Under the pieces are notes generated by a model. That model did not search any database, had not been told where the DNA came from, and was given only the letters and a program-made list of their open reading frames with translations. A DNA stretch of 24,000 bases from positions 746,269-770,268 of the forward strand of contig NZ_CP035283.1 in assembly GCF_004103755.1 (NCBI RefSeq). The letters run 5' to 3'. Shown here in pieces: positions 2,717 to 21,688 of this stretch (positions within the stretch are counted from its first letter, which is position 1; each line of letters starts with the position of its first letter). This DNA comes from Caproiciproducens sp. NJN-50 (GTDB taxonomy: Bacteria; Bacillota; Clostridia; Oscillospirales; Acutalibacteraceae). The translations under genes were made by a program, and so were the position numbers.

Positions 2717-3793
2717 TTAAACCGCAGAGTACAGCCAGTGCCCGCCGGGCCCCGGCACACATCGGGCTTTTCCCTTGTGAACAAGGTAATCCAAGTGGGA
2801 TTTTGCTTCCCCCAGGGCGAACATTTTCTGCGCGGGCGGAAAATCGGCCCAGCTTTTCGCCCTGATCTTCCACGACATCTGAGAGGCGGTTTCATAACAG
2901 GTCTGTTGAGGCCGGCGGACGAGAATGGAGTGCGTTTCTTCCAGCCGTTTTTCATGATGTGCCAGAAGCTGCTCCACGCGGGCAGCCATGGACATACCTC
3001 TGGTTGTGCGGTGGCCTGGAAGGGGGATCCGCACGTCGTAAGCGGCGATTTTTCTCAGGCTTTCCAGATAGTCTCCAAGGCTGTCCTCCACTCCCGGCCA
3101 ACAGGTGATATTTGGAGTGATGTCAAAAAGGACATGGTCGCCCAGGAACATCAGCCGATTCGCGGCATTGTAAAGGCAGAGATGGCCCGGCGTATGGCCG
3201 GGCGTGGAAATACAGGTGAACTGATAACCGCCATAGAAAAGCGAATCGCCGTCCTGAAGCAACTCGGCCCGAAAAGGGGGAGAAATATATTTCCACGCGG
3301 GCGTGCTGGCCATGATGGCTTCCATTTCCTCATCGGAAGCGCCCAGGCCGACGTACTCCGGGAAACATTCGCGCCATGTCTTGTCATGCCTGTAATTCTG
3401 CTGCAGGCTGTAATCTGTTTTTCCCATAAGGATATGAGCGCCGGCAGCCCCAAAATCCGCGGCGAGGCCGCTGTGGTCGGAATGCATGTGGGTCAGATAA
3501 AGGTCGGTTTTGGACACGTCCGCGTTCAGTTCCCTGAGCCCGTCCCGCAAATCAGACCGGCATTCGTCCATGTTGAATCCGGTGTCGATGAGCAGATTCC
3601 GCTCATCACCCCGTCCGCGGATGAAATAACTGTTCAGGACCCTGAGCGGATTTCGTGGCAGATTGACCGGAATACGATAGATTCCGTCGAATACTTTGGC
3701 GATCATGTTTATGTTTCCAGCTTTCATTTCATGCTGTGGCGCCTGATGCGCAGGCTCCGATGAAAAAGAAGGGATACCCCGGATCTTCATCAC
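2717..3793 (-). CDS. MBL-fold metallo-hydrolase
   Basis: HxHxDH zinc motif (HMHSDHSGL) plus downstream His/Asp-containing segments (TPGHTPGH, LGDHV, LPGH). The start is uncertain: GTG 3793 and ATG 3790, 3727 or 3706 are all in frame and none has a strong SD. Last gene of the minus-strand operon. Confidence 0.8.
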   Translation of the reverse strand: MMKIRGIPSFSSEPAHQAPQHEMKAGNINMIAKVFDGIYRIPVNLPRNPLRVLNSYFIRGRGDERNLLIDTGFNMDECRSDLRDGLRELNADVSKTDLYLTHMHSDHSGLAADFGAAGAHILMGKTDYSLQQNYRHDKTWRECFPEYVGLGASDEEMEAIMASTPAWKYISPPFRAELLQDGDSLFYGGYQFTCISTPGHTPGHLCLYNAANRLMFLGDHVLFDITPNITCWPGVEDSLGDYLESLRKIAAYDVRIPLPGHRTTRGMSMAARVEQLLAHHEKRLEETHSILVRRPQQTCYETASQMSWKIRAKSWADFPPAQKMFALGEAKSHLDYLVHKGKARCVPGPGGHWLYSAV

Positions 3794-3888
3794 GGGATAC
3801 CCCGACGGAAAAAAGACATGCCAGTTTTTTCCGGAGTTGCGGTCTGTTCCGGATCAGGACGGAGAAAATGGCGACGCTTCCAAGCTCA

Positions 3889-4944
3889 TCAGACGGAGGG
3901 TTCCGGAATATTGAAATCCTTGGGTGATTTGGTGGTGGCTCCCGCGCGGTACAGGGTCCAGCAGGTCATGGACTGCCATTTTTCGATGAACGTGTCCGCC
4001 TCGTCGCCGGTATAACCCAGAGGCTGCAGGGAGAGGTTCTGACAGAATTTCTGGAAGGTATCGGTTTGATAAGCCTTGTAGAAAGCGTCCTGAAGTGCTT
4101 TCACTACGGTGTCCGGAGTCCCCTCCTTGACGAACGCTCCATAGAATGGCCCCCAGTTGTCCAGCATTCCTTTATACTTGCTGTTGCATTCCTCCAGGGT
4201 CGGAACGTCGGTAAGCTCTTTGTTTGCACAGCGTTTGTTGGTATAGACTCCGAGGGCTTTCATCTTCCCGGTAGCGATGTACTGGATGGCGGCGGACTGC
4301 GCGATCACAGAAGCGTCCACTTCGCCGCTGATCAGAGCGGGCTGCAGCGTGCCGTCTCCATCATAGGTAATGGAGTTGTATTTAATCCCCTCGACCATGC
4401 AGGTCAGCGCAAAGCAGTTAAAAGGCAGGCCGCCCACACCGGTCGTTCCGACGTTCAGTTTGCCCGGATTGGCCTTGGCGTAGTCGATCAGGTCCTGGTA
4501 GGAGTTAAACTTCGAGTCGGCCGGAACGACTAAAATCCCCACGTTTTTTGCCAAAACGATAACGGGAATATAATTGCTGTAGTCGATGTCACCCAGATTG
4601 AGCAATTTATAGAGGGGCGGATTCTCCGCGTTCAGCAGAAGGTTGTATCCGTCGGCAGGCTGGTCGTGGACATATTTTGTCGCGATATAGCCGGTGCCGC
4701 CGGTCTTGTTGGTAAGAACAATGGTCGTGCCGAGGTTCTTCGCCGCCAGCGGGCAAATGGTGCGCATGACGTTGTCGGTACCGCCGCCGGCTGCCCAGGC
4801 GATGAACCCGTTGATGCTTTTGCCTTTATCGGGATAGGTGCTGTTTCCGCCCGCTGCGTTGCCCCCGCCCGTTGTGCCGCTGCAGCCCGTCGCAAGAATA
4901 AGGATTGTCATGGATGCCAGAATGATGGACAAGATTCTTTTCAT
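3889..4944 (-). CDS. tctC: Tripartite tricarboxylate transporter (TTT) substrate-binding lipoprotein, TctC/Bug family
   Basis: Lipoprotein signal (MKRILSIILASMTILILATGCSG). Length and sequence are typical of the Bug/TctC family. Strong SD AGGAGGGG 7 nt upstream of ATG 4944. It lies directly downstream of tctB-tctA. Confidence 0.85.
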   Translation of the reverse strand: MKRILSIILASMTILILATGCSGTTGGGNAAGGNSTYPDKGKSINGFIAWAAGGGTDNVMRTICPLAAKNLGTTIVLTNKTGGTGYIATKYVHDQPADGYNLLLNAENPPLYKLLNLGDIDYSNYIPVIVLAKNVGILVVPADSKFNSYQDLIDYAKANPGKLNVGTTGVGGLPFNCFALTCMVEGIKYNSITYDGDGTLQPALISGEVDASVIAQSAAIQYIATGKMKALGVYTNKRCANKELTDVPTLEECNSKYKGMLDNWGPFYGAFVKEGTPDTVVKALQDAFYKAYQTDTFQKFCQNLSLQPLGYTGDEADTFIEKWQSMTCWTLYRAGATTKSPKDFNIPEPSV

Positions 4945-5016
4945 ATTTTACCCCTCCTAAAGTTTCACCGGTTCAGTAAAGGATTGCGGGCCGGTCCCGC
5001 CGCCCTCTTCCGCCTT

Positions 5017-6558
5017 TCAGCTTTCTGTGGCGCTTTTTTTGCGGAATAGGGCCAAAAACCGCTGCTTAGTGCTTTTGGGAATCGCTATAAAAATAACGAA
5101 CAGAAGAAGAATCAGGGAAATCGGATGAGTAAAGAAACCGGCGACGAATTCACCCAACTGGCCGTGTGCGATATTCATGGCCCTGCGCCAGTTGGTGTCG
5201 AGAATGTTGGACAGGATAATGCCGAGCACCATCGTTGCGACGGGAAAATCGTGCATTTTAAAGAGATATCCGAGGATTCCGAAGAAAAACATCCAGTAGA
5301 TGTCCGTGACGCTGTTGTTGATGGAGTAGCTGCCGATCACCGACAGAATTACAATGACGGGAATAATGACATGCTTCGGCACCTCGACCACTTTGCAGAA
5401 AAGATGGATGCCCGTCAGGCCGAGAACAAGCAGGAAACAGTTCGCGAGAATCAGAGCGCCGACGATCGTCCAGAAGAACTCCGGCTGATCCTGCATCAGG
5501 AGCGGACCCGGGCGGATGCCGTGGATGGTCAGGGCGCCGATCAGGATCGCCGTGACCGAGTCGCCGGGGATCCCGAGCGTCATCATGGGGATAAACGCGC
5601 CGCCGATGGCGGCATTATTGGCGCTTTCCGGAGCGATCACACCGGCATAGGCCCCTTCGCCGAAGGGGCGGTTGGGATTCTTTACCGAGCGCTTGGCGTG
5701 ATCGTAGGCGATCAGGGCCGCAATGTCCCCGCCGGTGCCGGGCAGCGCCCCCACGAGCGTTCCGAGCGCGGAGCAGCGCATCGCAAGGGGCATATAATGT
5801 TTCATGATTTTCCAGTCCGGCAGAATTCTCTGAATCTGCTGCTTCACCGGCTTCAGGTTAAAATGCAGCTGGTACAGGGCCTCGGACATGCCGAACAGGC
5901 CGATCATGACCACGACAAAATTGATGCCGGCCAGGAGGCTGGGGATGCCGAACGTCAGCCGGGGCTGGGCCGTGACGGAGTCCATTCCGATCATTCCGAC
6001 CACCACGCCGAAAAAGGCGGTGATCAGCGCCTTCGGCAGGGATCCCTTGCTCAGGGAGCCAACCAGGAACAGCGCCATGATCGCCAGCAGCAAATAATCG
6101 CGGGCGGCGAAATTGATGGCGAGGCGGCCGATCAGGGGAGAGAGCAGCGTCAGGCACAGCAGTCCGACGAATCCGCCCAGCACCGATTCGGTGGTGCTCA
6201 GTCCCATCGCGGTCCCCGCCTCTCCCTTCTGGGCCAGCGGATATCCGTCGAAGCCCGTCGCCACAGCCGCGGGGGCCCCGGGGATGTTCAGCAGGATCGC
6301 GGAGCGGCTCCCGCCGTATACGCCGCCGGTGAAGACGCCGATCATCAGCGCCAGGGCCGGATTGGTATCCCAGGAAAAGGTAAAGGAGATCAGCAGTGAG
6401 ACCGCCATCGTCACGGAGAGTCCGGGAATCGCGCCGATGTAAATTCCAAGGAAAACGCCCACTGCAATCCAGAGAATCATCGTGATGGAAGTGTAAGCTG
6501 TAAAAAATCCACCAAAGCCGTTGAAATAACCGGAGAATAAAGATGCCAGAGATGCCAT
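5017..6558 (-). CDS. tctA: TTT transporter large permease subunit TctA
   Basis: Polytopic membrane protein of about 510 aa with TctA-like Gly/Pro-rich helices. I prefer ATG 6558, preceded by AAAGGAG 10 nt upstream, over the ORF-track start at 6579, which is a TTG. Confidence 0.85.
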   Translation of the reverse strand: MASLASLFSGYFNGFGGFFTAYTSITMILWIAVGVFLGIYIGAIPGLSVTMAVSLLISFTFSWDTNPALALMIGVFTGGVYGGSRSAILLNIPGAPAAVATGFDGYPLAQKGEAGTAMGLSTTESVLGGFVGLLCLTLLSPLIGRLAINFAARDYLLLAIMALFLVGSLSKGSLPKALITAFFGVVVGMIGMDSVTAQPRLTFGIPSLLAGINFVVVMIGLFGMSEALYQLHFNLKPVKQQIQRILPDWKIMKHYMPLAMRCSALGTLVGALPGTGGDIAALIAYDHAKRSVKNPNRPFGEGAYAGVIAPESANNAAIGGAFIPMMTLGIPGDSVTAILIGALTIHGIRPGPLLMQDQPEFFWTIVGALILANCFLLVLGLTGIHLFCKVVEVPKHVIIPVIVILSVIGSYSINNSVTDIYWMFFFGILGYLFKMHDFPVATMVLGIILSNILDTNWRRAMNIAHGQLGEFVAGFFTHPISLILLLFVIFIAIPKSTKQRFLALFRKKSATES

Positions 6559-6581
6559 GGACGCATCGCTCCTTTCCAAAA

Positions 6582-7112
6582 TTAAGGCAGAACGACCTGC
6601 ATGAGATAGTGGAAGATCACCAGGATGGCCGCTACCACGCCCACGGAAATAAAAACCTTATGAAGCGGTTTTCTGCGGTCGAGCAGGTACATCGTGCCGA
6701 AAAGAAAGACCAAAGAGGTCACGGTAAAATGCGCAAACGGCAGCAGCACCCCATAGGCCAGAACCATAGCCAGCAGGACGATCACGTCTCTGGAAACCAC
6801 ATGCCTGACGGCCTCTTTCAATCCCCGCTCCCTGAATTTATCCCGGAACAGGATTCCGCACGTCACCAGGATAATCAGGAAGAATATCGCCAAAATGAAG
6901 AGCTGAGGCAGGGAATTGGGGTTCGTCAGGCCGGTAAAAATGCCCTCCAGCTTCAGCGAATCGGCAAACAGCGCCAAAGTGATGAGAAACATCAGTCCCA
7001 GAAGCCAAATTTCACCCGGAGCATGCTTTGGGGTGCCCTCGTCACCCGGCTTGACTGCGGCGCTGTCCTTTTCCCGCTCCGCGGCCTCCGCTTCTATTTC
7101 CTTGTTTTCCAT
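6582..7112 (-). CDS. tctB: TTT transporter small membrane subunit TctB-like
   Basis: A 176-aa protein with a charged N-terminus and about four hydrophobic helices, immediately upstream of tctA. SD GGGAGGAG precedes ATG 7112. Confidence 0.7.
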   Translation of the reverse strand: MENKEIEAEAAEREKDSAAVKPGDEGTPKHAPGEIWLLGLMFLITLALFADSLKLEGIFTGLTNPNSLPQLFILAIFFLIILVTCGILFRDKFRERGLKEAVRHVVSRDVIVLLAMVLAYGVLLPFAHFTVTSLVFLFGTMYLLDRRKPLHKVFISVGVVAAILVIFHYLMQVVLP

Positions 7113-7220: not shown

Positions 7221-9233
7221 TCAGGTGTGGTCCGGGGCCAGAAATCCGAGCCGTTCCAATGTCAGCAGGACGTTGCGCCCCGCCTGAACGCCGCTGATGA
7301 TCTGGCCGGCCTTCAGACTGTCGCCAATATTGAGAATTTCCACGGAGCCGGAAAAATCAGAGCGAAGCCCGTCCAGTACCGGCGCATAAGGGCGCATTCC
7401 CAGACAGATGAATCCATAATCCAGCGGAAGCGCAGACTGCTTCCCATCCGTTTCCACAAGAAACTGCGTTTTCCGGACCTCCAAAAGTCTGGTGCCGGTC
7501 AGCTGCCGCACTTTATATTTTTCCATCATGTTACTGTCGCATACCTTGGTGATCGGATCAAGGTCGCTGCCAAGGGCGGGCAGCAGTTCCACAACCGTCA
7601 CCTCGGCGCCGCGCTGCGCGAAGAATTCCATCATATCCAATCCGACCGCTCCGCCGCCGGCAATCACGACCTTTTTCCCGGTCATATCCGCCGGATAGCT
7701 GTCCACATGGTCGATCATGGAGAAAACCGTATGGATCGGACTGCCCTCCTGATCGGTCGTTTCACGCAGGCCCGGGATATTCGGCAGGACCGGAACGGAG
7801 CCGGTGGCGTTGACAATGACGTCCGGCCGCAGATCACGGATCTTTCCGGTGCTTGCCGGAGTGTTCAGGAGCACGGTCAGATTTTTGAGATTGGAAGCCC
7901 GGCGGATCAGATAGGCTGTAAAGTCGCCGATCCTCGCCTTATCCGGCAGCCGGACAAGGTCCGTCGTGTGGCCTCCGAGATGATCGGACTGCTCCAGAAG
8001 AGAAACGGTGCAGCCGACTTCGGCGGCAGTGCAGGCGGCTTCCAGCCCGGCCGTGCCGCCGCCGGCCACGACAACGTTGCATGGGCGTGAGACCTTCCGG
8101 CTGCGGTAGGCGTCCCCCTCCACGACCGCCGGATTGACCGTGCAGCGCAGAGGGCGGTTCTTTCCGATCCGGTTTCCCGCGCAGCCGATATTGCAGGAAA
8201 TGCATTTGCGAATCTCATCCTTTTTCCCGTTTTTCGCTTTCCAGGCCCAATCGGGGTCTGCGATCAGGCAGCGGCCCAGTCCGATCAGGTCTGCGTCGCC
8301 CCGCTCCAGAATATCCTCCGCCACATGGGGATCACGGATGTTGCCCATGGTGATTGTGGGTTTTCCAAAGCGGTCCCGGACCGCGCGCGCCATGTAGGAG
8401 CGCCAGCCGTCGGGCCGGAAGCAGGAATCGATCTGATATTCCAAAGAGTCGTTCAGGCCGCAGGATACATTGAATACATCCACCAGGCCGGCGACATACT
8501 TTAGGTATTCCAAAGTGTCGTCCAGAGTGTTTCCGCCCGGGACAAATTCGTCCGCAGACAGCCGGAGCATGACCGGGAAATTCGGGCCGACCTGGCTGCG
8601 GATCTCTTCGGCGGCCTCGCGGAGGAATCGGGCCCGGTTTTCGGGAGTGCCTCCGTATTGATCCGTGCGGCCGTTGGTGGTGGGAGAGAGAAATTGGCTG
8701 AGCAGATAGGAATGCCCGCCGTGAATCTCCACGCTGTCGAATCCCGCAATCTGCGCCCGTTTCGCAGCCGCGCCGAAATCCTTCACGATTTTCTGAATCT
8801 CTTCCACAGTCAGGGGACGGGGGATTTCATTCCCCCGCTTGCTGGGGCGGCTGGATGCGGAAACAGGCTGCATTCCGATCCGGGAAGAGCGGGCGGAAGC
8901 GCCCGCGTGATTGAGCTGAATGGAAACGGCGCAGCCCTGGGCGTGAAGGGCTTCGCACAGTTCAAAGAAGCCGGGAATGAAACGATCCTCGTCCAAACGG
9001 AGCTGGGTTGTTCCGTTGGAGCCGGCGGGGAAGGAGACATTGGCGTTCTCGACAATGATCAGTCCGGTGCCTCCCCTGGCTCTTTGAATATAGTAACGCA
9101 TGTGTTCCCGGCTGATAGAGCCATCCGCACAGGCAAAATTTGTTCCCATAGGCATCATAACAGTGCGGTTCTGAATCGTCAAGTTTTTTATCTTAAGAGG
9201 TGAGAAAAGGACCGGAAAGGAACAACCTTCCAT
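7221..9233 (-). CDS. NADH:flavin oxidoreductase of the 2,4-dienoyl-CoA reductase / 2-enoate reductase / BaiCD-BaiH class (OYE FMN domain, 4Fe-4S, FAD/NAD(P) domain)
   Basis: N-terminal OYE-like TIM barrel (LFSPLKIKNLTIQNRTVMMPMG, HGGHSYLLSQFLSP). Cys cluster CISCNIGCAGNRIGKNRPLRC. Two Rossmann GxGxxG motifs (VVVAGGGTAGLEAA; KVVIAGGGAVGLDM). The 670-aa length fits the family. Confidence 0.88.
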   Translation of the reverse strand: MEGCSFPVLFSPLKIKNLTIQNRTVMMPMGTNFACADGSISREHMRYYIQRARGGTGLIIVENANVSFPAGSNGTTQLRLDEDRFIPGFFELCEALHAQGCAVSIQLNHAGASARSSRIGMQPVSASSRPSKRGNEIPRPLTVEEIQKIVKDFGAAAKRAQIAGFDSVEIHGGHSYLLSQFLSPTTNGRTDQYGGTPENRARFLREAAEEIRSQVGPNFPVMLRLSADEFVPGGNTLDDTLEYLKYVAGLVDVFNVSCGLNDSLEYQIDSCFRPDGWRSYMARAVRDRFGKPTITMGNIRDPHVAEDILERGDADLIGLGRCLIADPDWAWKAKNGKKDEIRKCISCNIGCAGNRIGKNRPLRCTVNPAVVEGDAYRSRKVSRPCNVVVAGGGTAGLEAACTAAEVGCTVSLLEQSDHLGGHTTDLVRLPDKARIGDFTAYLIRRASNLKNLTVLLNTPASTGKIRDLRPDVIVNATGSVPVLPNIPGLRETTDQEGSPIHTVFSMIDHVDSYPADMTGKKVVIAGGGAVGLDMMEFFAQRGAEVTVVELLPALGSDLDPITKVCDSNMMEKYKVRQLTGTRLLEVRKTQFLVETDGKQSALPLDYGFICLGMRPYAPVLDGLRSDFSGSVEILNIGDSLKAGQIISGVQAGRNVLLTLERLGFLAPDHT

Positions 9234-10540: not shown

Positions 10541-10577
10541 ATAATATAACACGTTTCATTGGTTTCAACAATTGAAA
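10541..10577 (-). promoter_or_regulatory. Putative sigma-A promoter of the minus-strand operon with overlapping dyad TTTCAA-caa-TTGAAA
   Basis: On the minus strand: -35 TTGAAA (complement of 10563-10568), a 16-nt spacer, and -10 TATTAT (complement of 10541-10546). The -35 is one arm of a perfect 6+6 inverted repeat at 10563-10577. The inner 13 bp fit the LysR-type T-N11-A pattern. Confidence 0.4.
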
Positions 10578-10814
10578 ACGGGTAGCGATAGATAAGTCCT
10601 ATAGGTTCCTACTAAAGCGCAGGATTTTCCGATTAGTATTTTAGAAGAATTGATGCTACAATAAACAAAAAATCAGGTGCTACAGCTTACAGAATCAGCA
10701 TTTTAACAACACTGTATGCCTGCTTTTTTGATCAAAGCATGGGTTGCGGTGAGCGCAGTCCATACGCACACACCTTTGGGTTAAAATTTTCACATTCATT
10801 TTAGGAGGTAAAAA

Positions 10815-12008: not shown

Positions 12009-12014
12009 GCTTCG

Positions 12015-12039
12015 GGGACGCCGCCCTGGGCGGCGTCCC
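12015..12039 (+). other. GC-rich intercistronic stem-loop
   Basis: GGGACGCCGCC (12015-12025) is the exact reverse complement of GGCGGCGTCCC (12029-12039), with a 3-nt apex. No T-tract follows. It lies between the ACAD stop (12008) and the CoA-transferase start (12068). Confidence 0.6.
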
Positions 12040-15801: not shown

Positions 15802-15857
15802 GCTGCGGCTGATTGCTGTCAATCCTAGCCAAAATGGTGAAAGGATGAGTAAGCCAT

Positions 15858-16619: not shown

Positions 16620-16795
16620 GGGCCCCGATGACGGGGGTTCATTTCCTGAGAGCTAGAGTATCGCTTTTACGGAGGAGCCCGTTTCGTCTTTTATCCTGGG
16701 TGCTGGTGGGATAGTCTGCGGCTTTGCGTCTATTTTACCAGCGTCAGGGCAAATGCGGGAATATAAAAAATTACGCATAAAGGAGATTTTCCATC

Positions 16796-17668
16796 ATGGG
16801 AGACTGGATTGACGGCCATACAGTGCCATTCGGGCTGCTCGGCTCGCCGGTGGGACACTCGGGTTCGCCGGCCATGTATAATTATTGTTTTGAGAAAGAC
16901 GGGTTAAACTGCGTTTATCTCGCGTTCGATATCGACCTCAATACGCTGGACGCCGGAATGAGCGCGGTCAAGGCCCTTCATTTCAAAGGAATCAACGTCA
17001 CGATGCCGTGCAAGAGCGCCGCGTTGAAATATGCGGACGAGTGCACCAAAGCCGTTCAGCTGATCGGCGCAACCAACTGCATGGTATGCGAAGATGGAAA
17101 ATGGATCGCACACAATACCGATGGGATCGGTTATGTGAACAATCTGAAGGCGCACGGCGTCGATGTCGCGGAAAAGAAAATCACGCTGATCGGCGGCGGC
17201 GGGGTCGGCATGGCAATCCTGGTCCAGTGCGCGCTCTCCGGCGCAAAGGAAATCTCCGTCTTCAACATCAGGGATTCTTTCATGGGAAATCTGGAGAAGC
17301 ACGCGGAGCTGGTCAACCGCGAAGTTCCCGGCTGCACCGTCCGCGTCCTTGATCTGGCGGATAAGGATAAACTGAGCGCGGAGATCGCAAGCAGCCAGAT
17401 CCTGACAAACGCTACCCGCGTCGGCATGGCCCCGCAGGAACAGTCCACGCCGATCCCGGATGCCGGCGTATTCCACAAAAGCCTTACAGTTGCGGATACG
17501 GTATACAATCCGCGTGAGACCCGGCTGATCCGGGAAGCAAAAGCCGCCGGCTGTCTTGGAATCGGCGGGATCGGCATGCTTGTCCGCCAGGGTGAAGCGG
17601 CGTACCGGATCTTCACCGGAAAAGCTATGCCCGTCGAGGAAATTCAGAAAAAATTCTTCGACAACTGA
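16796..17668 (+). CDS. aroE: Shikimate/quinate dehydrogenase paralog (AroE/YdiB family)
   Basis: SD AAAGGAGA 10 nt upstream. Motifs GLLGSPVGHSGSP, NVTMPCK, IGATNC, HNTDGIGY and GGGGVGMA, plus a YdiB-like cofactor loop VFNIRD. Confidence 0.85.
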   Translation: MGDWIDGHTVPFGLLGSPVGHSGSPAMYNYCFEKDGLNCVYLAFDIDLNTLDAGMSAVKALHFKGINVTMPCKSAALKYADECTKAVQLIGATNCMVCEDGKWIAHNTDGIGYVNNLKAHGVDVAEKKITLIGGGGVGMAILVQCALSGAKEISVFNIRDSFMGNLEKHAELVNREVPGCTVRVLDLADKDKLSAEIASSQILTNATRVGMAPQEQSTPIPDAGVFHKSLTVADTVYNPRETRLIREAKAAGCLGIGGIGMLVRQGEAAYRIFTGKAMPVEEIQKKFFDN

Positions 17669-17711
17669 CCAATGCCCCTATCCAAATATTATCTAAGTTA
17701 AGATCGGCTCA

Positions 17712-17757
17712 TTGTAAAAATCACCTCTATTTGTTATAATAAATAGAGATGATTTTT
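17712..17757 (+). promoter_or_regulatory. Near-consensus extended -10 promoter embedded in a 17-bp-arm inverted repeat, upstream of the LysR gene
   Basis: -35 TTGTAA (17712-17717), 17-nt spacer, then TGT-TATAAT with the -10 at 17735-17740. AAAAATCACCTCTATTT (17716-17732) pairs with AAATAGAGATGATTTTT (17741-17757) with one mismatch. The same element could act as the terminator of the preceding gene. Confidence 0.5.
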
Positions 17758-17819
17758 ATCATGTAGAGATTATTTCTATTTTTCGGGTGTTTAGCGTGGT
17801 GACGGGAAGAGGGACTTTT

Positions 17820-18731
17820 ATGAATTTGTCTCAACTGTATTATTTTAAGAAGCTTGCAGAGGTTCAGCACTATACAAAGGCTGCAAAGGAACTCTATATC
17901 ACGCAGCCCAGCCTGAGCGAGGCAATCTCTTCCCTGGAATCGGAGCTTGGCGTCCGGCTGTTTTTGAAGAACGGGCGCAATATCAGGCTGACCCAATACG
18001 GACAGGAGTTTTATCAATACGTTTCAGCGTCGCTCAACGAACTTGACAAGGGCGTCAATGTAATCCAGGAACAGGTTAAGGATATCGGAGGGACGATTGA
18101 AATCGGCTGTATCGCCACGCTGCTGGTTGGATTCATGGCGCGCGCGATGTATTCCTATCGCGAGTCTGTGAGCGAAAAGACGGTTTTCCACGTTTTTGAA
18201 ACCCCCACCGCGGTGGCGATTGAAGGCCTGAAGTCGGAAATCTACGATATCGCTTTCTGCTCGAAGGTGGAAGATCCCGATCTGCGGTTTACTCCGATTC
18301 TGGAGCAGGAGATCCTGGCGCTGGTGAATCAACAGCATCCGCTGGCAAAATGCGAAACGATCACGCTCAGGGATCTGGCGGGCTATAATCTGATCACTTA
18401 TCGCCCGGATATTCAGATCGGCAGGGATGTGGGCACACTCCTGGCTGAAAACGGCCTGAAGGCGGAACAGCCTTTTATGGAGGAAGGCTCCATAGGAGCC
18501 AGCGTGCAAATGAATCCGATCGTTGGCATCGTTGCCAACACCGTCTGGCTCAGCCAGTATCCGAATCTGGTGAGGATCCATTTCTCCGATGTTCCAAGGG
18601 GGTTCCGGAAAGTCTGCATGGCGTATAATTCAAAGCACTTTATCAACCGGCCGACGGAGCGCTTTATGGACTTTGTGCTGTCCCACCTTGATACGCTGGT
18701 GTCGGAGGAATACAGGCTTGAGAACGGCTGA
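17820..18731 (+). CDS. LysR-family transcriptional regulator
   Basis: N-terminal wHTH MNLSQLYYFKKLAEVQHYTKAAKELYITQPSLSEAISSLESELGVRLF followed by a LysR substrate-binding domain. ATG 17820 is preferred over GTG 17787 because of SD GGAAGAGGGA upstream. Confidence 0.9.
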   Translation: MNLSQLYYFKKLAEVQHYTKAAKELYITQPSLSEAISSLESELGVRLFLKNGRNIRLTQYGQEFYQYVSASLNELDKGVNVIQEQVKDIGGTIEIGCIATLLVGFMARAMYSYRESVSEKTVFHVFETPTAVAIEGLKSEIYDIAFCSKVEDPDLRFTPILEQEILALVNQQHPLAKCETITLRDLAGYNLITYRPDIQIGRDVGTLLAENGLKAEQPFMEEGSIGASVQMNPIVGIVANTVWLSQYPNLVRIHFSDVPRGFRKVCMAYNSKHFINRPTERFMDFVLSHLDTLVSEEYRLENG

Positions 18732-18733
18732 GG

Positions 18734-19270
18734 TTACGGCGACTTTCTGCTGCCCTGGGGAGCCGGCGCTTTCATCTTATCCATGGGAACCTGCAACAGC
18801 CCGAGTTCTCTGTTCCAGGCGAAGAGAGCGAAGCCGCGCTTGCAGCGAAACGTGCATTCCAGACAGGGGTCCTCGTCGCAGTAGCAATAGGCGTCGGTGT
18901 CGGCAAGGGCGAACACAATGGAATGCTTGGACGGCGGGATGTATTTCAGCTGCCCGCCGGTAAAAGTCTTCAGGCAGATCCATTCGGGCGCGAGCGCGTC
19001 CGTGCTGGAGTACCAGGTCACTTTGACGGCATTTTCATTGAACCCGCCGACAATCTCATAATCGATCATCAGACCGCAGCCGGCTTCCAATGGGACCGGC
19101 TGCAGTTTTTTCATCGGCGCGGAACAGCACCGCACCTCCGCGTCCGCGGTTCCGATCAGTTGAAAGACGCTGCCGCATGACTCGCAGAGAAAAAACTGCG
19201 GATCGCCGCAGATCGGTTCCGGCTTTCTGGTTTCCCGAGCACGCCTCGGCCCAAATCTCTTATCCGGCAT
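18734..19270 (-). CDS. Desulfoferrodoxin-like protein: desulforedoxin-type N-terminal FeCys4 motif plus a divergent, Cys-rich SOR-like C-terminal domain
   Basis: C29-x2-C32-x15-C48-C49 followed by APMKKL matches the Dfx centre I pattern CxxC-x15-CC-xxPM. The C-terminal part aligns loosely with the SOR beta-sandwich but lacks the His ligands. It carries C129-x-C131-x4-C136-x2-C139-x3-C143. The start overlaps the ligase stop by 11 nt. Confidence 0.65.
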   Translation of the reverse strand: MPDKRFGPRRARETRKPEPICGDPQFFLCESCGSVFQLIGTADAEVRCCSAPMKKLQPVPLEAGCGLMIDYEIVGGFNENAVKVTWYSSTDALAPEWICLKTFTGGQLKYIPPSKHSIVFALADTDAYCYCDEDPCLECTFRCKRGFALFAWNRELGLLQVPMDKMKAPAPQGSRKSP

Positions 19271-20945
19271 CGTTTGAACTCCTTGCCTGCATCTGCCCGT
19301 GGGAATCCCGCCCCGTTCGGCGGGCCAGTTCCTGCGCGAGCAGATACTTTTTTATCTTTCCCGATTCCGTCATTGGAATCGCGTCTATATTTTCTACCCG
19401 TTCTGGCCAGGCATACTTGGAGACGTTGGATTTGCGCAGGAAATCCGTCAGCATTTGCAGTGTGACCGGCTTGGCCGGATCGGATGGCACCACAAATGCG
19501 CAGATCCTTTCTCCGAGCCGGGGGTCCGGCATACCGATCACGGCGGAGTCCCGGACGGCCGGACAGCGGAGCACGTTTTCGTTTAGGGAATTTGCGTTCA
19601 GGTTCACTCCTCCGCGGATGATGACGTCTTTCATTCTGCCCACGACCCGGATATTCCCTTCCGGATCGCGCGTGCAGATGTCTCCGCTGTGAAACCAACC
19701 CTCGTCGTCCAGAACCTTTTCTGTGGCGGCGGGATCGTTCATGTAGCCGACAAAAACGTTGGGACCGCGGGACCATTCCTCCCCTTCGGTGCCGTCCGCG
19801 GCGTCCCTTCCGTCCCGGCCGATGATGCGGACTTCAATTCCGTCGATCGGTCGGCCGGCGGAGGGCTTGATCTCTGCGGACCATTCGGCCGGCCGGATCA
19901 ATGTGTGTGGAATACTCTCCGTGGAGCCGTAGCATTCACACAGGCGGATCCCATATTCAGATGCTTCCCTGACAAGATAGGACGGCACGGGGGCGCCTCC
20001 GCACATAAATAGCCGAAGAGTCGGCATTTGCTTCCTGGTTGACTGGAGATACTTGAGGATATCGTATACGAACGTGGTGGTTCCCATGGAATAGGTACAG
20101 CGCTCGCGGTTGATCAGCCCGACGGCATCATCGGCGGAAAACTTCTTTTCGAGCACAAGCCCTGCGCCCGCAAGCATGGTTGCCAGCACGCCGTGCGCAA
20201 AACCGGTGGCGTGGTACAATGGAGCCGGCATAAACATAATATCCTCCGGAGTGACCCCGACCGCCCGGTTGAACCCCTGTTCGCAGAAGATCAGGTTATT
20301 GTGGGTCAGCATGGCGCATTTTTTGGCGCCGGCCGTACCGGACGTGCAGATCACCGCAGCGACCGATTCGCTTCCAACGGGACCGGCGCCGCGCAGCGTG
20401 TCCATGTTCTGGGGAACATCGACAATTTTTCGAAGGGTTGGGTAACCGGCAGCGGCCGTCCCCTGAGTTTCCTCCACCTGGATCACGGCGCGGATGCCCG
20501 GATGCCGGGAGTACATCTGCCGCGCAAGTACCGTGTAATCCACGCCTTTATAGGCCGTGGGGCAGAAGTATGCCCTGGTTCCAACGCGGTCAAAGATCTC
20601 AGATAGCTCTTCCGCCTGAAACGAAGGGGACAGAGGGTTTGCAATTGCGCCGATCTTCAGGCAGGCGACCGTGATGATGACGAATTCGCTCCAAACGGGA
20701 ATCTGGAAGGAAACGGCATCCCCGGGGCAGATGCCGGCGGAGAGAAGGTATGCCGCCAGTCTGCCGCTTTTCTCATCCAACGCTCGGTATGTGTACCGAA
20801 ACCCGCGGTCGTCTGCAATGTATTCACGATCCCCGAATCTAACAACGGCGTCGTTCCAACAGTCCAGCAGCGTCCGCGCGGTCCAGTACCCCTTTTTGTA
20901 GTAGAGTTCTTTCTGACGGCCGTTGACCTTTCCCTTGTCTGTCAT
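19260..20945 (-). CDS. AMP-dependent acyl-CoA synthetase/ligase (ANL superfamily)
   Basis: A 561-aa protein with SD GAGGAG upstream of ATG 20945. ANL motifs: ICTSGTAGAKKCAMLTH (P-loop-like), YGSTE, WFHSGD, and RMKDVIIRGGVN with SGKIKK near the C-terminus. Confidence 0.88.
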   Translation of the reverse strand: MTDKGKVNGRQKELYYKKGYWTARTLLDCWNDAVVRFGDREYIADDRGFRYTYRALDEKSGRLAAYLLSAGICPGDAVSFQIPVWSEFVIITVACLKIGAIANPLSPSFQAEELSEIFDRVGTRAYFCPTAYKGVDYTVLARQMYSRHPGIRAVIQVEETQGTAAAGYPTLRKIVDVPQNMDTLRGAGPVGSESVAAVICTSGTAGAKKCAMLTHNNLIFCEQGFNRAVGVTPEDIMFMPAPLYHATGFAHGVLATMLAGAGLVLEKKFSADDAVGLINRERCTYSMGTTTFVYDILKYLQSTRKQMPTLRLFMCGGAPVPSYLVREASEYGIRLCECYGSTESIPHTLIRPAEWSAEIKPSAGRPIDGIEVRIIGRDGRDAADGTEGEEWSRGPNVFVGYMNDPAATEKVLDDEGWFHSGDICTRDPEGNIRVVGRMKDVIIRGGVNLNANSLNENVLRCPAVRDSAVIGMPDPRLGERICAFVVPSDPAKPVTLQMLTDFLRKSNVSKYAWPERVENIDAIPMTESGKIKKYLLAQELARRTGRDSHGQMQARSSNDAG

Positions 20946-21160
20946 CTATTTCCGCCGCTCCTCTCTGGGCATTTTAAACTGTTATCATTATACAATAAGA
21001 TGTACAAAATACACAATGATCATGGTGAAAATAATGTATCGTTTTGTGCTATTTATATCGAAGCAAGCATAGGGAAAAACTATCATTTCTGCGGTAGATC
21101 GATTTGCTTCCGGTTATCCGGAACTTGAGGAAGATGATGCCGTATACTATATATAGAAGA

Positions 21161-21188
21161 AGAGCACTGCATGATTGTGCAGTACTCT
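21161..21188 (-). terminator. Hairpin after the thioesterase gene (weak terminator candidate)
   Basis: AGAGCACTGCA (21161-21171) pairs with TGCAGTACTCT (21178-21188) with one mismatch. On the minus strand it is followed by a T/C-rich stretch, not a clean T-run. Confidence 0.35.
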
Positions 21189-21226
21189 CTCTTAACCTTC
21201 CGGACCCGGCGCGATGACGCCTCATT

Positions 21227-21688
21227 TCAAGCCGGGGTGATTTCGATCCGGTCCAGAACATACAGCAGAACGCTGGCCACAGTGACGACCGTGTCGGACT
21301 CGTCCCGGATGACCGCCCGCACGTTGCACAGAGTTTTTCCAACCTTTTCAGGCGTTGCGGTGCAAATGAGCCTGTCGCCGCCGGCCGGCCGGAAAAACTG
21401 AAGATTCATGGTTGCCGTGGTCACGTCGAGCCCGCGGCTGAAGCAGGAGAACGCCGAAATCACATCGACGAGAGTGCTGAGCGCTCCGCCATGGCAGAAC
21501 CCGTGCAGGTTCCGGTTCTTATTGGAGAGGAGAATCTCGCCCTCTGCCATGCCGTCGCCGAGGCGGGTCAGGTTGATATCGGAGAGAAGGGGGTAGTTTT
21601 CTTCCGTGTTGAATTTTTGATGAAGATACCGGTCCCAGGATTCTTTCGTCCAGGGTTTGCCGCCGTTTGTTCTGTCAAAAGCCATCAT
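21227..21688 (-). CDS. PaaI-family hotdog-fold thioesterase
   Basis: A 153-aa protein with the characteristic segment NLHGFCHGGALSTLVDVISAF and the downstream beta-sheet region TTATMNLQFFRPAGGDRL. Confidence 0.85.
   Translation of the reverse strand: MMAFDRTNGGKPWTKESWDRYLHQKFNTEENYPLLSDINLTRLGDGMAEGEILLSNKNRNLHGFCHGGALSTLVDVISAFSCFSRGLDVTTATMNLQFFRPAGGDRLICTATPEKVGKTLCNVRAVIRDESDTVVTVASVLLYVLDRIEITPA

Follow-up and report, generated by a model that had tools for sequence, protein, structure and literature searches.

A clostridial gene cluster that may reduce a ring carboxylate as its CoA ester, with a putative quinate/shikimate funnel

The 24-kb stretch of Caproiciproducens sp. NJN-50 DNA analysed here, referred to as the window, may contain a lineage-specific expansion, supplied by a quinate/shikimate funnel, of a widespread clostridial CoA-loop operon in which a ring carboxylate serves as the electron sink. 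We assign this reading, which is derived from sequence comparisons, a probability of about 45%, and we infer the substrate and product of the cluster. A preliminary description had interpreted the genes as a reductive pathway for hydroaromatic acids. Co-conservation of a core set of genes, the adjacency of shikimate-dehydrogenase-family (SDH) genes to this core, a QuiR-like regulator, a shared putative operator, and a bifurcating-type EtfB speak for that interpretation. Against it, most of the related loci lack an SDH gene, no curated cyclohexanecarboxyl-specific threshold is reached, the similarity of the cluster regulators to QuiR is 22–43%, and the window has neither a ShiA-type transporter nor an Etf gene. 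All of the genes named in the description were located (Table 1), and Pfam and NCBIfam matches at the domain level agree with the functions assigned to them. Two genes had been overlooked, encoding an MBL-fold hydrolase and the protein s180. The reported absence of a dehydroshikimate dehydratase and of ring-cleavage genes was confirmed for the window with the same profile collections. The window contains no Etf gene, whereas EtfBA is present in most of the related clusters.

Table 1 Features of the window (positions count from its first nucleotide).
Feature	Position	Strand	Evidence
MBL-fold metallo-hydrolase	2717–3793	-	Pfam Lactamase_B, E=2e-17; NCBIfam Strvi_7410-like, 158 bits, under cut-off
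TctC	3889–4944	-	Pfam TctC, 134 bits
TctA	5017–6579	-	Pfam TctA, 494 bits
TctB	6582–7112	-	Pfam TctB, 51 bits
OYE/4Fe-4S/FAD-NAD(P) flavoenzyme	7221–9233	-	Pfam Oxidored_FMN, 257 bits; Pyr_redox_2
ACAD1, canonical butyryl-CoA-dehydrogenase-type	9307–10434	-	Three ACAD Pfam domains
Putative LTTR-type operator ATAGA-TAAGT-CCTAT	10588–10602		In 380-bp divergent ACAD1/ACAD2 promoter region
ACAD2, atypical ACAD fold	10815–12008	+	ACAD Pfam domains; best solved ACAD only 193 bits
Perfect 11-bp GC-rich hairpin without U tract	12015–12039	+	-27 kcal/mol; between ACAD2 and CoA-transferase
Family III (CaiB/BaiF) CoA-transferase	12068–13297	+	Pfam CoA_transf_3, 298 bits
MFS transporter	13346–14659	+	Pfam MFS_1
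SDH1, YdiB-like	14929–15801	+	NF001313 shikimate dehydrogenase, 529 bits (cut-off 431); YdiB model, 345 bits (cut-off 349)
Type I AroD	15858–16619	+	53% identity to E. coli AroD
SDH2	16796–17668	+	41% identity to E. coli YdiB
QuiR-like LysR-type regulator	17787–18731	+	Pfam HTH_1, LysR_substrate
s180, Cys-rich 178-aa protein	18734–19270	-	Overlaps ligase stop codon by 11 nt
FadK-family ANL acyl-CoA ligase	19260–20945	-	Pfam AMP-binding; NCBIfam FadK model, 668 bits (cut-off 736)
Putative LTTR-type operator, second copy, ATAGG-GAAAA-ACTAT	21069–21083		124–138 nt upstream of ligase start
PaaI-type hotdog-fold acyl-CoA thioesterase	21227–21688	-	Pfam 4HBT; TIGR00369, 62 bits

The gene grouping is not a chance juxtaposition, because the whole gene order is repeated in two loci from Oscillospiraceae/Clostridiales (L001 and L026, with CoA-transferase identities of 89–91%) and the genes acting on CoA esters stay together in about 70 of the 80 related loci, which were gathered with the family III CoA-transferase as the anchor. 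The core consists of ACAD2, the CoA-transferase, ACAD1, usually EtfBA, the FadK-family ligase, s180, and LysR, and this order is kept in about 67–71 of the 80 loci, which span Oscillospiraceae, Lachnospiraceae, Clostridium, Acetobacterium, and Halanaerobium. ACAD1 is present in 69 loci and s180 in 67, every time after the ligase. The entire 19 kb does not form one co-conserved unit. Next to the core, the OYE enzyme occurs in 8–10 loci, Tct genes in about 13–15, and an MFS gene in 21; of 81 regions compared, only the window and three loci contain AroD. In 19 of the 80 loci, SDH-family genes lie inside or adjoin the core, and their arrangements comprise at least six gene orders. The MBL-fold hydrolase, the final gene of the leftward operon, is an accessory gene; homologues are located between LysR and ACAD2 in four loci (L016, L017, L019, L024), and one is also present in L001.

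ACAD2 is the signature of the system. Over 72 sequences, invariance of at least 97% is seen at 200 of its 397 residues, including seven histidines and two cysteines, compared with 87 of 375 invariant residues in ACAD1, and its identity across Clostridia families is 77–95%. The canonical pocket motifs are replaced in ACAD2 by His/Cys-rich ones. The gap noted in the preliminary description, a missing dehydratase, is plausibly filled by ACAD2, possibly together with s180, and we propose that ACAD2 is an FAD-dependent dehydratase or a dienoyl-CoA enzyme. The FAD-dependent dehydratase of actinomycete cyclohexanecarboxyl-CoA biosynthesis is said to have the ACAD fold. ACAD1 retains the canonical I-F-E-G-T motif with the catalytic glutamate, reaches 314 bits against solved ACADs, with CarC among its best solved relatives, and is proposed to be an enoyl-CoA reductase. 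Its top NCBIfam match is the acryloyl-CoA reductase AcrC. For cyclohexane-1-carbonyl-CoA dehydrogenase, the curated threshold is 650 bits and the two ACADs score 338 and 184 bits, and both are closer to generic butyryl-/acryloyl-CoA enzymes than to that dehydrogenase.

The s180 of the window matches the hypothetical protein EQM14_03720 from Caproiciproducens sp. NJN-50 with 100% identity and has no Pfam family apart from Desulfoferrod_N at E=8.5e-4. Its AF2 model (pLDDT 78.5) has superoxide reductase and desulfoferrodoxin as its best Foldseek matches (E=3.5e-6), which indicates that s180 is probably a desulfoferrodoxin-fold protein. Six of its eight conserved cysteines are invariant and two nearly so, and a conserved His4 site was not found. 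On the Sporomusa plasmid pSPTER, s180 directly follows ACAD2 with no ligase in between, and the pair is coupled there with SDR, alcohol dehydrogenase, and UbiD decarboxylase genes. Therefore, the ACAD2/s180 module may serve several substrates.

The OYE flavoenzyme resembles enoyl- or dienoyl-CoA reductases in sequence. It contains a CxxCxxxC..C motif within residues 344–364 (C344-C347-C351-C364), and among solved structures it is closest to 2-naphthoyl-CoA reductase (6qkg, 228 bits) and FadH (1ps9, 227 bits). Since these enzymes reduce naphthoyl-CoA and dienoyl-CoA, we count the similarity toward a hydroaromatic link. The same applies to the ligase, since its nearest solved structures, salicylate- and 2,3-dihydroxybenzoate-AMP ligases, activate ring carboxylates. 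The ligase is 37% identical to E. coli FadK, its next NCBIfam family is cyclohexanecarboxylate-CoA ligase (336 bits), and it falls under both the FadK and the cyclohexanecarboxylate-ligase cut-offs. The OYE enzyme scores 445 bits against the BaiCD cut-off of 825, and no enzyme of the window reaches the cyclohexanecarboxyl-, Bai-, or YdiB-specific curated thresholds of NCBIfam. The CoA-transferase, the start of which is placed near position 12068 instead of the ORF start at 11768, is generic within its family (best PDB match 146 bits). Hairpins of unrelated sequence occupy the position of the hairpin preceding it in loci L003, L070, and L082. EtfB of the related loci is predicted to be of the electron-bifurcating type, based on one locus tested (Hungatella, L070), in which it matches CarD, Bcd-Etf, and other bifurcating Etfs with 241–198 bits and non-bifurcating ones with less than 100. 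A bifurcating-type Etf fits the reductive direction.

SDH1, AroD, and SDH2 appear from sequence to be a reversible module connecting quinate, 3-dehydroquinate, 3-dehydroshikimate, and shikimate. The module matches TIGR01093 with 247 bits, above the cut-off of 139. SDH1 is 49% identical to E. coli YdiB. The SDHs conserve the catalytic Lys/Asp and the SxS motif, as well as a YdiB-like Asp that follows the Rossmann strand, and the SDH-family genes at the core of other loci also have intact catalytic residues. TctABC (3889–7112) is predicted to be a tripartite carboxylate uptake system. The MFS transporter is 29% and 27% identical to E. coli YdiM and YdiN; sequence comparison showed that it is not ShiA-like, and the window has no ShiA-type transporter. 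A terminator-like hairpin (21189–21160) separates the PaaI-type thioesterase from the ligase. At least 32 loci, and L082 as well, have hotdog thioesterases of other subfamilies beside the core.

The regulator, the true start of which is probably an ATG near position 17820, is classified as QuiR-like by its putative effector domain. The best solved match of this domain is Listeria QuiR/Lmo0488 (5TED, 70 bits), followed by BenM with 33 bits, and the QuiR effector domain is matched by all 73 cluster LysRs with 22–43% identity. QuiR is a shikimate-dependent activator in Listeria, whereas protocatechuate is what a paralogue of QuiR senses (bioRxiv 10.1101/2025.04.08.647683), which we count as a caution against the shikimate link. 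An alignment of 17 intergenic regions shows conservation of the consensus ATAGG-N5-CCTAT upstream of ACAD2, and 25 of 81 loci contain the exact box, mostly immediately upstream of that gene. With at most one mismatch, only two sites are present in the 24-kb window, against 0.27 expected. We count this putative operator, common to the ACAD genes and the ligase, as a sign of co-regulation.

Based on these features, a mechanism can be proposed. Quinate or shikimate would enter through the Tct and/or MFS transporters. The YdiB-like SDH1 would oxidize quinate, type I AroD would dehydrate the product, and SDH2 would reduce it again to give shikimate, if the module runs in this direction. Such a detour would be redox-neutral overall and would remove the alpha-hydroxyl without radical chemistry. 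The FadK-family ligase may prime the pathway with ATP to give an enoyl-thioester, after which the CoA-transferase would move CoA from the finished product to the incoming substrate. ACAD2 may eliminate the remaining ring hydroxyls, with the Cys-rich s180 probably as its redox or metal partner. The resulting dienoyl- and enoyl-CoAs could be reduced by the OYE/FeS flavoenzyme with NAD(P)H and by ACAD1 with a bifurcating-type Etf, which is cluster-encoded in most relatives and would be encoded elsewhere in the Caproiciproducens sp. NJN-50 genome. CoA transfer would free the end product, cyclohex-1-ene- or cyclohexane-carboxylate, and the hotdog thioesterase may act as a safety valve. Through the ATAGG-N5-CCTAT boxes, the QuiR-like LysR would activate both the ACAD operons and the operon of the ligase.

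It is conceivable, but rather doubtful, that the core serves as a CoA-loop enoyl-CoA reductase system acting on another acid and that the quinate/shikimate genes are a separately functioning neighbour. Phenylacrylates (caffeate, cinnamate), short acids that are unsaturated or carry a hydroxyl group (acrylate, crotonate, 5-hydroxyvalerate), and dicarboxylates are candidates for this acid. SDH and AroD would in that case equilibrate hydroaromatic compounds, as E. coli ydiB-aroD, or contribute to aromatic amino-acid biosynthesis. No SDH-family gene is present within 10 kb in 61 of the 80 core loci, model acetogens included, which together with the rarity of AroD implies that the core either uses shikimate directly or usually has a different substrate. 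We know of no use of quinate or shikimate by the acetogens bearing the core. The caffeate-respiration architecture, the kinship of ACAD1 and EtfB to CarC and CarD, the AcrC match of ACAD1, and the other accessory enzymes in the Sporomusa variant also favour a different acid. Furthermore, the SDH1-AroD-SDH2-LysR unit has its own promoter-like sites and an upstream hairpin, and no operator match was found before it. However, SDH genes are embedded in the operon itself in several unrelated orders (for example, MFS then SDH, or SDH then EtfB), whereas chance alone would give about one such locus in 80, as estimated from 1–3 SDH genes per 3–6-Mb genome. The QuiR-like regulator is common to all loci, SDH-AroD-SDH with MFS and LTTR is a catabolic or conversion layout and not a biosynthetic aro operon, and the hyper-conserved ACAD2 and s180 would have no role in simple one-step enoate reduction.

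Less probable still is oxidative or fermentative catabolism, in which quinate or shikimate, once activated to the CoA ester, would undergo dehydration or oxidation toward an intermediate of the cyclohexadienoyl-CoA or benzoyl-CoA type. Enzymes with genes elsewhere would then open the ring, and the acids would be a carbon and energy source instead of an electron sink. Brune and Schink reportedly isolated, in 1992, fermenting bacteria growing on quinate/shikimate without aromatic intermediates. In Geobacter, a CoA-transferase and two ACADs act on cyclohexane(ene)carboxyl-CoA oxidatively (PMC9795900), and ACAD/Etf systems are reversible (PMC8805022). Nevertheless, dienoyl-CoA hydratase, hydroxyacyl-CoA dehydrogenase, ring-cleavage hydrolase, and thiolase genes are conserved in none of the about 85 loci compared, the bifurcating Etf kind is typical of enoyl-CoA reduction, and a product-releasing CoA-transferase with a thioesterase fits an excreted end product. 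That beta-oxidation-type, aromatic biosynthesis, and transporter genes merely lie together by chance or lineage, with no common pathway, is highly improbable. The accessory Tct, OYE, AroD, and MBL genes do differ among loci and the annotations are generic, but the core order is kept across families, an identical operator type fronts two window operons, the SDH association recurs in independent arrangements, and synteny is complete in L001 and L026. We give the least credence to a biosynthetic role like that in Alicyclobacillus and Streptomyces, in which endogenous shikimate would be turned into cyclohexylcarbonyl-CoA to start omega-cyclohexyl lipids or a secondary metabolite. The two or three uptake systems, product-recycling CoA-transferase, thioesterase, and substrate-type LTTR are catabolic features, the adjacent genes include no fatty-acid or polyketide synthase, and a ChcA-type SDR reductase is absent.

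The precedents of the preliminary description that could be checked hold, including the Geobacter enzymes (PMC9795900). Syntrophus runs the same ACAD type reductively and excretes cyclohexanecarboxylate (PMC8805022), and gut flora turn shikimate into cyclohexanecarboxylate (PMC7558350); the host of the window is a caproate-type Caproiciproducens, not established as a gut organism. An assignment of this cluster was not found in the literature searched. Microbial reduction of quinate/shikimate to cyclohexanecarboxylate has long been known without genes, and the window provides a testable candidate. Actinomycete cyclohexanecarboxyl-CoA biosynthesis involves an FAD-dependent dehydratase and a shikimoyl-CoA synthetase (Skyrud 2020). 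The core of ligase, CoA-transferase, ACAD, and bifurcating Etf matches the architecture of caffeate respiration. The two SDH paralogues flanking AroD, with MFS and LTTR, are laid out like the Listeria qui operons, and the E. coli ydi locus contains a parallel set of MFS, YdiB, AroD, CoA-transferase, ACAD, Etf, and FadK.

The genes of the window were defined by a six-frame listing of open reading frames (ORFs) and profile scans against Pfam and NCBIfam. Each gene function named in the preliminary description was confirmed, and the gene list was extended by two members that it had missed, an MBL-fold hydrolase and s180, a small cysteine-rich protein. The earlier exclusion of the aerobic protocatechuate route also stands, since no window ORF contains a domain of a dehydroshikimate dehydratase (QuiC/QsuB/AsbF type) or of a ring-cleavage dioxygenase. 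The ORF and profile scans detected no crotonase, BaiE-like or Etf genes in the window. Genes for a 2-hydroxyacyl-CoA dehydratase, a crotonase or a BaiE/SnoaL-like protein were neither found in the window nor conserved across the related loci, which agrees with the absence of an obvious dehydratase remarked on before.

Genes and predicted operator boxes of the window
Feature	Position	Strand	Remarks
Leftward operon: ACAD1 (canonical acyl-CoA dehydrogenase); OYE enzyme (OYE/4Fe-4S/FAD flavoprotein)	9307-10434; 7221-9233	-	intergenic gaps ≤108 nt
Leftward operon, continued: TctB, TctA, TctC; MBL-fold hydrolase	7112-3889; 3793-2717	-	
Divergent region ACAD1/ACAD2			380 bp between the two ACAD genes
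Predicted operator box	10588-10602		ACAD1/ACAD2 divergent promoter
Rightward unit: ACAD2 (atypical ACAD-fold protein); family III CoA-transferase; MFS transporter	10815-12008; real start ~12068; 13346-14659	+	
SDH1 (YdiB-like), type I AroD, SDH2, LysR	14929-18731	+	after 269-nt gap with hairpin
s180	19270-18734	-	178 aa, Cys-rich; 11-nt overlap with ligase stop
FadK-family ligase	20945-19260	-	convergent with LysR gene
Predicted operator box	21069-21083		upstream of ligase-s180 operon
PaaI-type hotdog thioesterase	21688-21227	-	upstream of ligase, terminator-like hairpin between
ABC_sub_bind (PF04392) solute-binding protein	22264-23319	+	

Eighty related loci were collected from species-representative genomes using the CoA-transferase as an anchor, each with 10 kb on either side, and were compared by tblastn and clustering of called ORFs. 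Such a comparison of gene neighbourhoods, proposed earlier as a check, showed that a core is kept across loci of Clostridia and that the full layout of the window recurs in two of them (L001 and L026, CoA-transferase identity 89-91%). The core is conserved in approximately 67-71 of the 80 loci in the order ACAD2, CoA-transferase, ACAD1, EtfB, EtfA, ligase and s180, followed by one or two transporters (MFS, GntP-like or an unknown 12-TM protein) and then by LysR. A hotdog thioesterase gene is often divergent from that of ACAD2. The hosts include Oscillospiraceae MAGs, Lacrimispora, Hungatella hathewayi, Enterocloster bolteae, C. clostridioforme, Halanaerobium and Acetobacterium tundrae, to which a protein search added A. 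bakii, other Acetobacterium species, the C. autoethanogenum/ljungdahlii group and C. saccharobutylicum. The remaining genes are patchily distributed: shikimate dehydrogenase family (SDH) genes accompany 19 of the 80 loci and Tct genes about 15; the OYE enzyme is encoded in 8-10 and the MBL hydrolase in about 8. AroD was found in four of the 81 regions, the window included. Therefore, of the contiguous 19-kb pathway put forward in the preliminary description, the part that holds together is the co-conserved CoA-ester core, and the other genes are lineage-specific accessories.

The solute-binding protein adjoining the cluster is kept beside it in L001 and L026 (78-79% identity) and may provide a third means of uptake; no permease or ATPase genes for it are visible before the sequence of the window stops. 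A BBE/FAD_binding_4 oxidase-type flavoprotein (1161-2618, forward strand) directly adjoins the cluster, and its best NCBIfam match, a weak one, is the bagremycin/ferroverdin oxygenase BagK. Neither this gene nor a DUF4317 gene has a match in the related loci, L001 and L026 included, and both were therefore left outside the system. The genes upstream of the Lacrimispora core (f15-f22) look unrelated on inspection of their sequences. A variant operon with three ACADs is present in L054, L057 and L074, which derive from Lachnospiraceae/Eubacteriales MAGs. Its order is SDH, EtfB, EtfA, an extra ACAD that is 41-42% identical to ACAD1, ACAD1 and an unknown ORF, followed further along by ACAD2, CoA-transferase and ligase. 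An FKBP-type PPIase is embedded just before ACAD2 in two of the three variant loci (L054 and L057), and s180 comes after the ligase in L057 and L074, whose contigs extend further. A strong hairpin without a U tract was observed in the gap between the ACAD2 and CoA-transferase genes of the window (12015-12039), L003 (~9945-9985), L070 (~9930-9975) and L082 (~11200-11240). The structure of the hairpin is conserved and its sequence is not, and it may act in stabilising or processing the mRNA and in this way determine how strongly ACAD2 is expressed relative to the genes downstream.

Both ACADs contain the N-terminal, middle and C-terminal Pfam domains of the superfamily together with its catalytic glutamate. 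ACAD1 is canonical, with an IFEGT motif and 314 bits to solved ACADs. ACAD2 keeps the glutamate in the divergent context LEEGP, and its best score to any solved ACAD is only 193 bits. ACAD2 surpasses all other proteins of the system in conservation, with 77-95% identity across families; between the window and the C. autoethanogenum-type locus the identity is 82% for ACAD2, as compared to 63% for the CoA-transferase and 47% for the ligase. Over 72 sequences, 200 of the 397 positions of ACAD2 are at least 97% invariant, as opposed to 87 of 375 in ACAD1. Seven histidines and two cysteines are among the invariant residues of ACAD2, at the pocket-motif positions of ordinary ACADs. The alignment shows that the invariant segments MRMHLHH, ISHTDC and HMMGCRGAGH replace ordinary ACAD motifs, which we take to line the flavin and substrate pocket. 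This substitution suggests that the active site of ACAD2 is metal- or acid/base-dependent, unlike those of known ACADs.

The s180 protein belongs to no Pfam family; its sequence is 100% identical to a hypothetical protein of Caproiciproducens sp. NJN-50 (Acutalibacteraceae), which establishes the host of the window. Its homologues, 172-212 residues long, are present in 67 of the 80 loci and are always encoded right after the ligase there. The AlphaFold model of s180 (pLDDT 78.5) was matched by Foldseek to desulfoferrodoxin/superoxide reductase (E=3.5e-6, probability 1.0). The protein has two Cys4 sites, one of the desulforedoxin type (CxxC...CC), in which C28 and C31 are invariant and C47 and C48 nearly so, and another made up of the invariant C130, C135, C138 and C142. 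It has no conserved histidine and lacks the catalytic Fe(His)4Cys centre of superoxide reductase. The protein database held about 207 clusters at 90% identity, all of them named hypothetical or desulfoferrodoxin-domain protein.

In the plasmid pSPTER of Sporomusa termitida (locus L086, NZ_CP036260.1 60234-73791), s180 (13367-13897 of the locus) is the gene next after ACAD2, without an intervening ligase, which indicates that ACAD2 and s180 travel as a pair. The locus continues with LysR, two MFS transporters, an SDR and an MDR alcohol dehydrogenase, and then a CaiB/BaiF CoA-transferase, a UbiD-family decarboxylase, ACAD1 and EtfB. The occurrence of the SDR, the alcohol dehydrogenase and UbiD beside ACAD2-s180 suggests substrate diversity. 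The pairing of CoA-transferase and UbiD resembles anaerobic phthaloyl-CoA decarboxylation, and the variant may mean that further ring acids are handled by the ACAD2-s180 module. Plasmid carriage was not adopted as a general sign of mobility, since pSPTER was the only relevant match.

In Pfam scans and alignment, the SDH proteins show both domains of the family (Shikimate_dh_N, SDH_C) along with its catalytic Lys and Asp and the substrate motif SxS. Alignment with E. coli YdiB showed that HSxSP, (S/T)MPxK and TDGxG are conserved in SDH1, SDH2 and six SDHs of related loci, the latter also keeping the YdiB-like aspartate after the dinucleotide-binding strand. SDH1 scores 529 bits with the shikimate dehydrogenase model NF001313 (cut-off 431) and marginally misses the YdiB equivalog NF009390, with 345 bits against a cut-off of 349 (238 for SDH2). 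AroD is a type I enzyme above the curated cut-off (TIGR01093, 247 bits versus 139; Pfam DHquinase_I, 268 bits).

The enzymes of the cluster are related to known families without reaching the curated thresholds for cyclohexanecarboxyl-CoA dehydrogenase, cyclohexanecarboxylate-CoA ligase, FadK, YdiB or BaiCD. The ligase scores 668 bits with the FadK model, below its cut-off, and 336 bits with the next family; its nearest solved relatives are salicylate- and 2,3-dihydroxybenzoate-AMP ligases. The OYE enzyme has the OYE TIM barrel, a 4Fe-4S motif (C344/C347/C351/C364) and a C-terminal FAD/NAD(P) domain, and is closest among solved proteins to 2-naphthoyl-CoA reductase (228 bits) and to the 2,4-dienoyl-CoA reductase FadH (1ps9, 227 bits). 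The substrates of these solved relatives are ring carboxylates and ring or dienoyl CoA esters. The CoA-transferase is of family III (CoA_transf_3, 298 bits, profile positions 1-350 of 366) and reached none of the Frc, CaiB, YfdE or mesaconate equivalogs of NCBIfam. Searches of NCBIfam and PDB gave generic matches only for the CoA-transferase, MFS, TctC and the unknown 12-TM protein. A ShiA-type shikimate transporter was also considered and rejected, as tblastn with E. coli ShiA had no match in the window or any locus even at E=0.01. Ligase, CoA-transferase, ACAD and EtfBA occur together in about 52 related loci. The EtfB of Hungatella L070, the one locus tested, is CarD-like: it scores 198-241 bits with bifurcating Etfs (the closest being CarD, C. 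difficile Etf, Acidaminococcus Etf, T. maritima EtfB and LctB) and below 100 with non-bifurcating ones. By analogy with caffeate respiration, the combination of ligase, CoA-transferase and thioesterase without genes for beta-oxidation or ring opening would be a CoA-loop electron-sink architecture.

The best solved match of the LysR effector domain is that of the Listeria regulator QuiR (Lmo0488, PDB 5TED, crystallised with shikimate; 70 bits, E=1.6e-18, 29% identity), followed by BenM with 33 bits. QuiR is a shikimate-responsive activator of the Listeria qui operons (YdiB, AroD, SDH), and a paralogue of QuiR binds protocatechuate (bioRxiv 10.1101/2025.04.08.647683). When 17 LysR/ACAD2 intergenic regions were aligned, the dyad ATAGG-N5-CCTAT, which fits the T-N11-A rule, proved to be conserved. 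Exact copies are present in 25 of the 81 regions, Lachnospiraceae included, most of them immediately before ACAD2. With at most one mismatch, the window contains two boxes as compared to 0.27 expected, and the presence of the predicted operator at both sites supports common control of the CoA-ester genes. TTCAA-N3-TTGAA was rejected as the LysR operator in favour of ATAGG-N5-CCTAT, since it is upstream of ACAD2 in only two of 76 loci. An identical 15-mer that contains it, GTTTCAACAATTGAA, lies at 10562-10576 upstream of ACAD1, overlapping the predicted -35, and at ~21989-22003 upstream of the ABC substrate-binding gene. By our estimate, two short intergenic regions would share such a match by chance with a probability of about 4e-4; the 15-mer is not conserved in other loci.

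The evidence from the SDH genes, the LysR regulator, the ydi locus of E. coli and the relatives of the ligase and OYE enzyme is independent and points the same way, towards hydroaromatic acids, although it does not amount to proof. In the main rival reading, the CoA loop of the core serves a different acid, either unsaturated or a hydroxy acid, and the aro-type genes are a functionally separate neighbour. It would accord with the roughly three quarters of core loci that have no nearby SDH gene, and with the lack of an ATAGG-N5-CCTAT box before the SDH1-AroD-SDH2-LysR unit of the window, which weakens the case for a single regulon of funnel and core. A merely incidental neighbourhood is difficult to reconcile with the recurrence of SDH genes inside or beside the core in Oscillospiraceae and Lachnospiraceae, where by our estimate (one to three such genes per genome) about one match per 80 windows would be expected by chance. 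The recurrence comprises at least six gene orders: MFS, TctA, OYE or LysR followed by SDH, as well as SDH-AroD-ACAD2 and SDH-EtfB-EtfA-ACAD. Furthermore, the QuiR domain is matched by each of the 73 LysR-family ORFs of the loci, with 43% identity for that of Halanaerobium. We consider the rival reading less likely than a hydroaromatic substrate. Even if the substrate does differ, ACAD2 and s180 merit study as a pair of enzymes that is uncharacterised and under unusual constraint.

Based on the predicted functions, we favour quinate/shikimate-type acids as the physiological substrates of the cluster in the window, with a probability of about 0.45-0.5; cyclohex(en)ecarboxylate is a more tentative proposal for the product. 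Quinate would be converted to shikimate by SDH1, AroD and SDH2 with a net redox change of zero, and this detour would remove the alpha-hydroxyl, which would otherwise need radical chemistry. ACAD2, a predicted ACAD-fold flavoprotein with a His/Cys-rich pocket, possibly together with s180, its putative desulfoferrodoxin-fold, double-Cys4 partner, may supply the missing dehydratase by eliminating unactivated ring hydroxyls from shikimoyl-CoA-type thioesters. Flavin-dependent dehydration of shikimoyl-CoA was reportedly described by Skyrud et al. in 2020 for actinomycete cyclohexanecarboxyl-CoA biosynthesis, and ACAD-fold radical dehydratases such as 4-hydroxybutyryl-CoA dehydratase are a further precedent. 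The resulting dienoyl- and enoyl-CoAs would be reduced by ACAD1 with Etf and, in the window, by the OYE enzyme. We know of no reported use of quinate or shikimate by the acetogens that have the core. The enzyme families, the CoA loop, enoyl-CoA reduction by ACAD/Etf and the conversion of shikimate to cyclohexanecarboxyl-CoA are already known, whereas ACAD2 with s180 is potentially a new enzyme system. We regard as rather improbable the joint proposition that ACAD2-s180 is a two-component ring-dehydroxylating enzyme and that the operon, working as an energy-conserving hydroaromatic respiration by means of bifurcating Etf in common gut Lachnospiraceae and model acetogens, encodes the route by which quinate and shikimate become cyclohexanecarboxylate.

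Few plant acids arrive in anaerobic habitats, including the gut, in larger amounts than quinate and shikimate, either free or set free from chlorogenic acids. The preliminary description stated that gut microbiota make cyclohexanecarboxylate from them, and the literature bears this out for shikimate, which gut flora convert to cyclohexanecarboxylate, the precursor of hippurate (PMC7558350). The reduction of both acids to cyclohexanecarboxylate, with aromatisation by the host, has been in the literature for over 40 years (Brewster et al., cited by PMC7558350). In agreement with the earlier impression that no gene cluster had been assigned, a full-text literature search found no paper describing the operon or assigning genes to this conversion, and the database names of the cluster proteins are generic, such as "acyl-CoA dehydrogenase family protein" and "hypothetical protein". 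Through this analysis, an idea drawn from one genome has become a defined, widespread operon for which the pair of ACAD2 and s180 is a diagnostic marker and for which both an operator and a class of effector are predicted. Its hosts are cultivable and partly genetically tractable (Hungatella hathewayi DSM 13479, Enterocloster bolteae, Lacrimispora spp., the Clostridium autoethanogenum/ljungdahlii group, Acetobacterium spp.), so that a decades-old observation on shikimate becomes directly testable. If the proposal is true, hippurate, a co-metabolite of diet, microbes and host, gains a gene marker, and a new electron-sink metabolism is added for acetogens and chain-elongating bacteria; new flavoenzyme chemistry may also come to light.

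The cluster can be compared with several known systems. The Listeria qui1/qui2 operons share a YdiB-like quinate dehydrogenase, type I AroD, a second SDH and a LysR-type regulator; however, they lead to protocatechuate through the dehydroshikimate dehydratase QuiC, absent here, and no CoA chemistry is described for them. The likeness to the bai operon holds for the parts list, namely a ligase, a family III CoA-transferase, MFS and OYE/FeS flavoenzymes acting on an alicyclic acid, but not for the individual enzymes: among the NCBIfam models the OYE enzyme fits BaiCD best, at 445 bits, far below the cut-off of 825, and profile scans of the window found no homologues of BaiA, BaiE or BaiI, nor SnoaL/BaiE-like or SDR BaiA-like ORFs. 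Conversely, ACADs, s180 and SDH/AroD are not bai components. The comparison with Geobacter and Syntrophus is likewise borne out in the enzyme set, a CoA-transferase and two ACADs with Etf (PMC9795900 for Geobacter, PMC8805022 for Syntrophus, where the ACADs run reductively and cyclohexanecarboxylate is excreted). These routes join benzoyl-CoA metabolism and not that of quinate/shikimate, and ACAD1 and ACAD2 score 338 and 184 bits with the cyclohexane-1-carbonyl-CoA dehydrogenase model NF043006 (cut-off 650), 185 and 122 bits with TIGR03207 (cut-off 575), and 187 and 93 bits with PDB 7xp7, below generic Bcd enzymes. The biosynthetic route of Streptomyces and Alicyclobacillus provides, by its description, the proposed precedent for the missing dehydratase. 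In it, a CoA ester of shikimate, made by a shikimoyl-CoA synthetase, undergoes flavin-dependent dehydrations (FAD-dependent dehydratase) alternating with C=C reductions and ends as cyclohexanecarboxyl-CoA. This route lacks transporters, CoA-transferase, Etf and an LTTR, and its SDR-type reductase ChcA has no counterpart in the window, where the profile scan found no SDR reductase.

Caffeate respiration in Acetobacterium woodii (carABCDE), a CoA loop whose caffeyl-CoA reductase-Etf is electron-bifurcating, has in common with the cluster a priming ligase, a recycling CoA-transferase, an ACAD-EtfBA enoyl-CoA reductase and the logic of using an organic acid as an electron sink; CarC (270 bits to ACAD1) and CarD (241 bits to core EtfB) are among the best solved relatives. 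The cluster differs in its family III CoA-transferase, ACAD2, s180, the QuiR-like regulator and frequent SDH/AroD neighbours, and the window has the OYE/FeS enzyme and no Etf. The ydi locus of E. coli K-12 (1772512-1784677, L081; ydiN-ydiB-aroD-ydiF-ydiO-ydiP-ydiQRST-fadK) shares MFS, YdiB-type dehydrogenase, type I AroD, CoA-transferase, ACAD, Etf and FadK-family ligase, with identities to the window of 49% for YdiB, 53% for AroD, 37% for FadK, 31% for YdiO and 27-29% for YdiM/N. It has the extra YdiS/T and lacks ACAD2, s180 and OYE. YdiF is annotated as an acetate-CoA-transferase, which we take to be of family I and not family III, and YdiP, presumably an AraC-type regulator, is not annotated as LysR-type. 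The genes ydiB, aroD and ydiN are co-induced in E. coli, and their products interconvert quinate, dehydroquinate, dehydroshikimate and shikimate (PMC4585142). No paper linking the ydi CoA genes to shikimate was found in the literature search. The shared parts list raises the possibility that these CoA genes also act on a shikimate-derived acid, and, if the proposed function of the cluster is true, it may offer a physiological rationale for the enigmatic ydi locus.
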